NCBI GenBank assembly: GCA_046497275.1
Contig: JAWOFX010000110.1
Location: forward strand, 1-24,310
Source of the DNA: Promethearchaeia archaeon
Lineage (GTDB): Archaea > Asgardarchaeota > Lokiarchaeia > Sigyniarchaeales > SOKP01
DNA: 24,310 nucleotides
Direction: 5' to 3'
The position numbers and the translations under genes were made by a program. Below, one piece after another: positions 9,081 to 10,616 of the stretch. The notes beneath the pieces were generated by a model that saw only the letters and a program-made list of their open reading frames with translations, made no database searches and was not told where the DNA came from. Each line of letters begins with the position of its first letter. The first letter of the stretch is position 1.

Positions 9081-10616
9081 ATGACTTTAAGACCTGGAAC
9101 TCCGATCATATTGGATGTAGGTTCTGCCTATACTAAGATAGGTTTTGCTGGGGAATCTGGTCCTAGATATGTATTTCCAAGCATCACGGGAACTGAAAAA
9201 TATAAAACTGTTATGGTTGATATTGATGCCAGAAATATTTATGTAGGAAACGATGCAATGAAGATGAGAGGGGTTTTAAAAATAAATCACCCAATTGAGC
9301 GGGGAGTTATTTTAGATTGGGATGATTGGTATCAAATTCTCAATCACGCATTTTACACGTTGTTACGAATTGAAAACCCAAGTGATCATCCTATTTTATA
9401 TGTGGAATCTCCTTTTGAGCAAAACGATGTAAAAGAGTTTATCGCACGAGTATTATTTGAAACACATCAATTTCAAAGTCTAATTATGGTTCCCTCCCCC
9501 ATTCTTTCTTGTTTTTCTGTAGGACTCACAACGGGACTTGTAATAGAAAGCGGAGATGGAATCACATGGATTGTTCCCATTATTAATGGCCAAATTATAT
9601 ATCAAGCTGTTCAAAAATTAAACCTCGCAGGAATGGATATTAGTAATAACCTAAAATCTCTTCTTATGAGAGAAGGGATAAATATTACATCTTCAGCAGT
9701 AGATGAAATTATACGCGAAATCAAAGAAAAGAACTGTTATTTTGTTCTAGATCCCGAAAATCCTAAGAACACTAAAGATAATGTAGCATATCCAATGCCA
9801 GATGGTTCAAAAGTTGGGATTCCTTCTCATATTCTCTATAAGGCACCCGAAGTTTTGTTTCAACCACAAATGCTCGGTTCTAATTCTTTAAGTATCCCCC
9901 AAGCAATTATTGAATGTTTAGAAAATACTAATAAAAATTATTGGGGTAATTTTCTAACATCAATGGTCTTATCGGGGGGAAATCTCATGCATAATGGATT
10001 TGAAGAGCGCTTAAAGAATGATTTGGACCCTCTTTTGTCTCAATTAGGATCTATTCCTAAACCCAAAAAGATTGAACCAGATAAAGAAGAGGTTGCTCTT
10101 CAGTCTATAGAGGGGAGTCCAAAAATAAATGATACATGCCCAAAATGTGGAAATCTTGTGGACTTATCAGAAGGATATAAAGCTTGCCCTATATGTGGAG
10201 CGGATTTATCAATGCCACAGATCTCCATAGAGACAAATAAAACGAAGGTCGAGGGAGGAGATACTATCCCATCACAATGTCCAAAATGTGGGAAGAATAT
10301 AAGAGAAAAAGACTCAATGTATTGTCCATATTGTGGAAACGATCTTCGAAAACGTGATTATGATATATCTAAACAAGAAGATGAGAAAAAGAGAATTTCA
10401 AATAACAATTTTGAAGTAAACGAATATTTCGATGAATCTAAAAATGTTATAAAATTCTATATCCCAGATAATCTTCAACTCTCTATTTTCAATGGAGCAG
10501 CAATTCTTGGAAGTTTACCTTCGTTCAAGAAACTTTTCATTACTCATGAAGACTTTCAATCTGATAAAGAGATCATACACCGTGATATTTCTCAAATTTT
10601 CGCTTTATATTCTTAA
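9081..10616 (+). CDS. Asgard actin-related protein with inserted double zinc ribbon
   Basis: Actin motifs: LDVGSAYTKIGFAG, VFPSITG, HPIERG..DWDD, TTGLVIESGDG, IKEKNCY, MPDG, APEVLFQP, VLSGG...GFEERL and SIFNGAAILGSL..F. An insertion at residues ~321-455 carries four CxxCG motifs. Confidence 0.93.
   Translation: MTLRPGTPIILDVGSAYTKIGFAGESGPRYVFPSITGTEKYKTVMVDIDARNIYVGNDAMKMRGVLKINHPIERGVILDWDDWYQILNHAFYTLLRIENPSDHPILYVESPFEQNDVKEFIARVLFETHQFQSLIMVPSPILSCFSVGLTTGLVIESGDGITWIVPIINGQIIYQAVQKLNLAGMDISNNLKSLLMREGINITSSAVDEIIREIKEKNCYFVLDPENPKNTKDNVAYPMPDGSKVGIPSHILYKAPEVLFQPQMLGSNSLSIPQAIIECLENTNKNYWGNFLTSMVLSGGNLMHNGFEERLKNDLDPLLSQLGSIPKPKKIEPDKEEVALQSIEGSPKINDTCPKCGNLVDLSEGYKACPICGADLSMPQISIETNKTKVEGGDTIPSQCPKCGKNIREKDSMYCPYCGNDLRKRDYDISKQEDEKKRISNNNFEVNEYFDESKNVIKFYIPDNLQLSIFNGAAILGSLPSFKKLFITHEDFQSDKEIIHRDISQIFALYS

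Follow-up and report, generated by a model that had tools for sequence, protein, structure and literature searches.

In eukaryotes, the actin fold has been split between a fast-cycling, nearly invariant filament former and slower or non-hydrolysing actin-related proteins (ARPs, or Arps in individual names), which cap, nucleate or scaffold. Among the Asgard archaea, UYP44711.1 of Ca. Lokiarchaeum ossiferum was reported as one of three unnamed 'ARPs' that 'clusters with other ARPs' and has a transcript level several-fold lower than that of Lokiactin (Rodrigues-Oliveira et al., Nature 2022/23; PMC9834061). That study gave the phylogeny and transcript level only, and nothing on the active-site residues, insert or function of UYP44711.1. 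In our literature search, this unnamed 'ARP' was the only mention of the family, and no description of a zinc-ribbon actin or of Asgard ARP biochemistry was found. Here, a homologue was analyzed that is encoded in a stretch of 24,310 nucleotides (the window) from a Promethearchaeia archaeon (assembly GCA_046497275.1, contig JAWOFX010000110.1). The product is a 511-amino-acid (aa) actin with two zinc ribbons and, judging from its active-site residues, it probably holds nucleotide without cycling, like some eukaryotic ARPs.

According to the summary of Fenn et al. 2011 given in PMC3510490, yeast Arp4, which carries T142 at the site of actin Q137, binds ATP tightly, and its hydrolysis does not rise above background. 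In Arp8, the sites of actin H73, Q137, H161 and G15 are occupied by R187, E266, S290 and T56, respectively, and only a low basal ATPase was recorded (PMC3510490). In actin itself, the attacking water is held by Q137, the flip of His161 at the G-to-F transition has been described as necessary for hydrolysis, and filaments of the Q137A variant showed low ATPase (PMC10062479).

The gene and its parts were located in the window as follows.

9081..10616, + strand: the whole gene of the zinc-ribbon actin-related protein (P0001), stop codon included (open reading frame list, Pfam)
9081..10040, + strand: the actin core, residues 1-320, comprising subdomains 1, 2, 4 and most of 3, with every substituted site inside (phmmer, structural model, Foldseek)
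10041..10445, + strand: an insert of ~135 aa with two CxxC...CxxC zinc ribbons in the loop of actin residues 322-326 (Pfam Zn_ribbon_3 / DZR)
10446..10613, + strand: the C-terminal actin segment, equivalent to actin ~326-375 (second HMMER stretch, translation)

The protein matched Pfam Actin (PF00022) with an E-value of 7e-75 and 252.6 bits against a cut-off of 27. Profile positions 5-353 and a C-terminal piece were covered, which amounted to a full-domain match. In a phmmer search of all PDB chains, conventional actins and the 'HC1 actin' 9wc4 were at the top (E ~1e-69 to 1e-70); residues 9-318 aligned nearly gap-free to actins, and a second stretch, residues 456-502, corresponded to actin 326-373. 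The AlphaFold2 (AF2) model, built from 55 orthologues, had a predicted local distance difference test score (pLDDT) of ~86-95 over the actin core, and low confidence was confined to the D-loop, one subdomain-4 loop and the insert linkers. The best 50 solved Foldseek matches were all conventional actins (E ~1e-34, target-normalised template modelling score 0.84-0.88). By the model and the Foldseek matches, the protein had the four-subdomain actin fold. NCBIfam held no model of its own for the family and returned only weak MamK and crenactin matches.

Conventional actin comprises ~375 aa and has an uninterrupted longitudinal-contact loop at 322-326, whereas the protein studied here was 511 aa long and carried 135 additional residues between the equivalents of ~320 and ~326. 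The insert was located on the barbed-end side of subdomain 3. Its Zn_ribbon_3 / DZR matches fell at residues 353-375 and 399-422, and all eight of its cysteines were invariant in the alignment of 55 orthologues.

Further, the active-site motifs were located by alignment, and their codon positions were confirmed through translation. The actin sites S14, H73, N111, Q137, D154, D157 and H161 corresponded to residues 15, 74, 113, 139, 156, 159 and 163 of the protein, respectively.

9114..9137, + strand: P1 phosphate loop DVGSAYTK (actin D11-K18), with D, G, S and K retained
9291..9305, + strand: sensor loop PIERG, with H73 replaced by R74
9489..9509, + strand: VPSPILS, with Q137 replaced by S139 and A138 by P140
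9546..9569, + strand: P2 phosphate loop ESGDGITW, with D154 replaced by E156 and H161 by W163, and with G156, D157 and G158 retained
9975..9986, + strand: adenosine-side loop GGNL, residues 299-302, against GGTT at actin 301-304

The exchanges of Q137 for S139, H161 for W163, H73 for R74, D154 for E156 and GGTT for GGNL had been listed in a preliminary description of this DNA based on an alignment by eye, and each of them was reproduced by the HMMER alignment to solved actins. In this alignment, S139 was placed under Q137 and W163 under H161. Hence, all four residues that mark conventional actin and lokiactin at these sites (Q137, H161, D154 and H73) were replaced. The phosphate loops had been described as intact, which held for the placement of DVGSAYTK and SGDG under the P1 and P2 loops, apart from a conservative change of G15 to A16 in P1; L16 was also replaced, by Y17. 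Within the GGTT motif, T303 corresponded to N301. Additional substitutions, beyond those listed before, were E113 for N111, K179 for R177 and M185 for R183, three positions of the phosphate-release gate of actin. In the C-terminal segment, PPERKYS of actin was changed to PDNLQLS, giving Q466 in place of K336 on the adenine side.

Over 120 full-length relatives, 498-525 aa in length and 55-78% identical, were obtained in the homologue search. All of them combined Actin and zinc-ribbon domains, and they came mostly from metagenome-assembled genomes of Lokiarchaeota/Promethearchaeota. Residues were counted in the 55-orthologue alignment (54-78% identity, mean column identity 63%), in which about one third of the columns were at least 90% conserved and 84 were invariant. 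R74 and E156 were each present in 55/55 sequences and W163 in 54/55. The neighbouring changes were similarly fixed (A16 53/55, Y17 55/55, P140 51/55, N301 51/55, and Q466 nearly invariant). Residue 139 was Ser in 37, Thr in 16 and Ala in 2 of the sequences, with Gln or Glu in none (0/55). The binding residues D12, G14, K19, G158, G160, E216, G299 and G300 were invariant, and S15, K215 and D159 were found in 54/55, 53/55 and 50/55 sequences, respectively. At the gate, residue 113 varied among V, E, M, I and Q and residue 185 among I, M, V and T, while the R177 site was occupied by K or R. It was concluded that the substitutions are family signatures and not drift: the catalytic and sensor positions form a fixed alternative set, the binding positions retain the actin set, and the phosphate-gate positions are relaxed.

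A decaying duplicate, an annotation artefact or a chance resemblance, for which the sole favourable point was the loss of the canonical catalytic residues, was given practically no credence. These were ruled out by the intact frame of 511 codons, the more than 120 orthologues of similar length and the 84 invariant columns, and also by the near-universal presence in the family, the conserved synteny and the transcription of the L. ossiferum homologue.

The pattern of residues was compared with those of the eukaryotic Arps. Like the protein studied here, Arp4 has a small hydroxyl residue at the Q137 site and an actin fold whose loops are altered where filament contacts are made, and it was regarded as the best functional analogue for the mechanism proposed below. 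It differs in being a eukaryotic, nuclear subunit of INO80/SWR1/NuA4 without zinc ribbons, and the archaeal protein resembles conventional actin more closely in both sequence and fold. Human/yeast Arp8 (PDB 4FO0) shares the exchange of H73 for Arg, the replacement of H161 and G15, and large insertions, and it stably binds ATP. However, Arp8 has the carboxylate E266 at 137 and D at 154, an arrangement that is reversed here (S/T at 137 and E at 154); its insertions are in other loops and its role is in chromatin. The protein has a small hydroxyl at 137, as in Arp4, together with an Arg at 73, as in Arp8. The ARP-like reading of the preliminary description, that nucleotide is bound and poorly hydrolysed, fits by analogy with the published properties of Arp4 and Arp8.

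We proposed, with moderate confidence and from the residue pattern, that the protein is a nucleotide-locked accessory actin, an archaeal ARP distinct from the filament-building lokiactin, which would bind ATP and hydrolyse it very slowly or not at all. ATP-Mg would be bound via S15, the P1/P2 backbone, D12, K19 and E156. The water-positioning side chains of Q137 and H161 would be exchanged for a small Ser/Thr and a bulky Trp, and W163 would pack over S139 and P140, narrowing or drying the catalytic water pocket, and would perhaps be hydrogen-bonded to E156. A Trp at the 161 site offers no proton relay, and Q137 and H161 would be left without a functional counterpart. The sensor H73 would be turned into a permanently charged Arg, and with the phosphate-release gate (N111, R177 and R183) dissolved, a tuned gate would be missing. 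The nucleotide would then be a structural cofactor locking one conformation, as in Arp4, rather than a timer, as in actin. Such a protein might act on the lokiactin cytoskeleton by capping, anchoring or adapting it, or might join another complex; an accessory role of this kind would fit a locked nucleotide together with the zinc-ribbon insert on the barbed-end side of subdomain 3.

Several points weigh against this proposal. The Q137A variant of actin still hydrolyses ATP at a reduced rate, and its catalytic waters W1/W2 are near-normal in crystals (PMC10062479), so that an exchange of Q137 does not settle the matter by itself. With a side chain one methylene longer than that of D154, the invariant E156 could come close enough to the attacking water to serve as a general base. 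Changes were also seen on the adenine side (T303 to N, K336 to Q), and the affinity or the nucleotide preference may be different. In the literature search, no biochemical or structural measurement was found for any family member. Finally, identity to actin/lokiactin was 36-60% on the pointed face and 11-45% on the barbed face, against 38% overall, a weak difference based on a few dozen positions; such a trend is compatible with capping or anchoring and establishes neither. The surface of residues 283-294 adjoining the insert differed from actin and included family-invariant residues such as W288.

If E156 acted in this way, together with S/T139 and Y17, it would replace the water relay of Q137 and H161, and the protein would be a rewired working ATPase; in a variant of this explanation, hydrolysis may be switched on by docking to a partner or a filament, as suggested for Arp8. 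Such a rewiring, the main competing explanation, was considered unlikely. It agrees with the presence of E156 in all 55 orthologues and its dominance across the whole clade, with the retention of all metal and phosphate ligands, with the low basal ATPase of Arp8, which has E at 137 and S at 161 (PMC3510490), and with the position of W1/W2 in Q137A actin mentioned above. The pair of E154 and W161 also co-occurs in the unrelated eukaryote-like proteins P0189 and P0263, which suggests functional pairing and not decay. On the other hand, a catalytic role of residue 139 is improbable given its tolerance of S, T and A, a Trp at 161 cannot shuttle protons, and the gate sites N111/R183 are not conserved or are hydrophobic, which argues against a tuned cycle of hydrolysis and release.

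P0189 (780 aa) and P0263 (757 aa) contain a near-canonical, eukaryote-like actin domain between long extensions, with W at the H161 site. P0189 reads EIGDGVTW and has E154 and W161 with Q137 kept, apparently an independent occurrence of the E154/W161 combination. This co-occurrence hints at a functional unit and does not indicate its direction.

The genome assembly (3.85 Mb, 98.9% complete) contained five full actin paralogues, two canonical and three non-canonical. In addition to the zinc-ribbon actin, these were the following.

Contig C156, 1474-2619: canonical lokiactin L001, the first type, 95-99% identical across the GTDB family
Contig C84, 1474-2613: canonical lokiactin L002, the second type, 82-85% identical and present in some genomes only
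Contig C172, 1489-2604: paralogue L003, no zinc ribbons, with Q14, K73, D137, E154 and R161
Contig C180, 1474-2643: paralogue L005, no zinc ribbons, with E73, A137, N154, E157 and Y161

The two lokiactin-like paralogues (444 and 425 bits; 81% identical to each other) retained T/S14, H73, Q137, D154, D157 and H161. They share with the zinc-ribbon actin the fold, 36-38% identity, the Gly-rich P1/P2 loops, and the GG motif and K213/E214 of the adenine side. They differ from it in having no insert and in keeping H73, Q137, D154 and H161, none of which is found in the zinc-ribbon actin, and the latter is faster-evolving. Across 29 genomes of the GTDB family, lokiactin was 95-99% identical, and the zinc-ribbon actin of the same genomes 55-66%; the extreme sequence conservation of conventional actins was thus lacking in the latter. 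This contrast of rates resembles the typical ARP-versus-actin pattern familiar from eukaryotes. Since two canonical lokiactins are encoded in the genome, the job of a dynamic actin is covered elsewhere.

A sixth, short actin-like frame was observed outside the window, beside a thermosome-like gene (C66:10869-11683, loci L006-L008). It covered profile hidden Markov model positions 5-109, a TAG codon, 112-180 and 299-383, with the subdomain-4 part missing; a remnant, a gene that was split and a minimal actin are all conceivable.

The distribution of the family was determined in 400 genomes of the phylum. In the window's GTDB family (f1), ~127 of the 134 genomes had a full-length match scoring more than 600 bits, and several f1 genomes lacking a match were only 61-78% complete. 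Three further families of the same order (f2, f3 and f4) had homologues of 490-566 aa with 38-51% identity, and in other classes of the phylum only matches at the lokiactin level (~1e-70) were obtained. The zinc-ribbon actin family covers one Asgard order.

A tree was inferred with IQ-TREE (LG+C20, quick search) from zinc-ribbon actins, lokiactins and unnamed actin-like representatives, leaving out the named eukaryotic Arps. The zinc-ribbon clade (30 rows) was monophyletic with a Shimodaira-Hasegawa-like approximate likelihood-ratio test (SH-aLRT) value of 100, and the window's protein was placed in the f1 crown, also with an SH-aLRT of 100. Lokiactins, the unnamed actin-like representatives and the clade, as a lineage of its own, met in an unresolved fork. 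Within the clade, the branching order was f4, f2, f3, and then genus g2 of the window's family with the f1 crown. An arrangement of all non-crown rows as one group, with the crown branching first, was rejected in the approximately unbiased (AU) test (log-likelihood difference 33.6, p 0.004), for which the group was chosen after inspection of the tree, though it matched the taxonomy codes. The window's protein carried the features of clade membership, namely CxxC...CxxC ribbons in the subdomain-3 loop, R at 73 and S/T/A at 137. In the wider clade, R73 and S/T/A137 were universal and E154 nearly so.

The phosphate loops followed another pattern. In the residue table of the wider clade, S14, D157 and W161 occurred together in the f1 crown only. 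In g2, f2-f4 and the 50%-cluster representatives P0122, P0123, P0125, P0127 and P0129, position 14 was E or Q, position 157 was E, C, S or T, and position 161 was H, T, S, F, Y, N or W. The earlier statement on intact loops is thereby narrowed to the f1 crown, and nucleotide binding is proposed for the window's sub-lineage only, because g2 and f2-f4 carry non-canonical residues at 14 and 157. The P1 loops of the crown and its relatives aligned gap-free, e.g., DIGSAYVK versus DIGEAYVK. The codon of position 14 was TCT (Ser) in the window and AGT in locus L019, and GAA, GAG or CAA in the relatives. Since S/T14 and D157 are the states of all other actins, the most economical history by residue states would be a change of S to E and of D to E on the stem of the clade, followed by a reversal on the stem of the f1 crown; otherwise, each site would require four to five parallel losses. 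It is conceivable, though on balance doubtful, that an ancestral zinc-ribbon ARP had Glu14 and Glu157 and that the f1 crown regained Ser14/Asp157 and fixed Trp161, turning a nucleotide-degenerate pseudo-ATPase into an ATP-locked protein.

Gene conversion from a lokiactin was rejected as the source of S14: DIGSAYVK of the crown was identical to DIGEAYVK of g2 except for the Ser, and the lokiactin loop read DNGTGISK.

The residues of the relatives also bear on a further explanation, in which the protein would be a nucleotide-free or ADP-only structural pseudo-ATPase of the Arp7/Arp9 type, with the cleft kept for fold stability. A carboxylate at the S14 site, where f2, f3, f4 and g2 have E or Q, should disfavour the gamma-phosphate; the D157 site of these groups is E, C, S or T, and the adenine-side residues N301 and Q466 differ from actin. 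In the window's lineage, however, the canonical state is found, almost without exception, at S15, at D159 and in both Gly-rich loops, K19, D12, K215 and E216 are conserved (invariant but for K215), and the use of both Ser codon families indicates selection on Ser itself. This explanation was judged quite improbable for the window's protein, and it fits the E14 relatives better than the window's lineage.

The published UYP44711.1 could be placed in this scheme. Both of its reverse transcription quantitative PCR primers matched inside the f3 locus L009, and the homologue at L009 is therefore UYP44711.1. It belongs to the same monophyletic clade as the window's protein, has R73, S137 and E154, carries its zinc-ribbon insert at the equivalent loop, and is likewise flanked by a ModE-like gene upstream and by prenyltransferase-like and FolD genes downstream. 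It differs in its identity of 38%, in Q14, C157 and H161, and in having one zinc ribbon. Because of Q14 and C157, its phosphate loops are non-canonical, whereas those of the window's protein are canonical.

The genes flanking the zinc-ribbon actin in the window were the following.

8083..8445, + strand: a 120-aa protein similar to the N-terminal winged helix of ModE (NCBIfam ModE_repress at 7e-13, short of the curated cut-off)
10719..11795, + strand: a prenyltransferase-like alpha/alpha-toroid protein (Pfam Prenyltrans 1.4e-21)

The prenyltransferase-like protein had an N-terminal signal-like helix, a C-terminal transmembrane helix and a short basic tail. By tblastn, the ModE-like gene was found directly upstream of the actin homologue in f1 and f3 genomes (L019, L020, L021, L023 and L024), and it was also present at the L. 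ossiferum locus. The prenyltransferase-like gene was directly downstream in the same five loci and in L025. The order of ModE-like gene, zinc-ribbon actin, prenyltransferase-like gene and FolD was conserved from f1 to f3, where the actin is only 34-42% identical; the single f4 genome that was inspected did not show this order. These conserved neighbours are candidate partners, and their conservation is not proof of interaction.

After FolD, a 154-aa protein without a family assignment and a homologue of DRG/TGS-type GTPases were encoded at 12853-14567 on the + strand, and the same order of FolD, the 154-aa protein and the GTPase was observed in the 60%-identical locus L019. The spacer before the actin ATG (8995-9080, 86 bp) was very AT-rich. 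A TATA-like ATTATTTAAG was located in it ~20-29 bp before the ATG, and no Shine-Dalgarno motif was obvious, which would agree with a promoter of the gene's own and a leader that is short or missing.

Compared with the published account, the position-by-position census of residues, the primer-based link to UYP44711.1, the contrast of rates with lokiactin and the proposed derivation of S14/D157 within the clade are new. The E14/E157 relatives and the S14/D157/W161 members provide a natural contrast for how much rewiring an actin active site tolerates. If the proposed reversal took place, a contact with the gamma-phosphate would have been regained and a water-excluding Trp placed in the catalytic pocket, and the E14 and S14/W161 types would be a natural pair of nucleotide states in one archaeal ARP family. 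As the cultured Ca. L. ossiferum and a Promethearchaeum-like genome both have a homologue, the nucleotide content, the ATPase rate and the effects on lokiactin filaments are directly measurable. Taken together, two canonical lokiactins and a faster-evolving, rewired paralogue suggest a eukaryote-like division of labour in Loki-type Asgard archaea.

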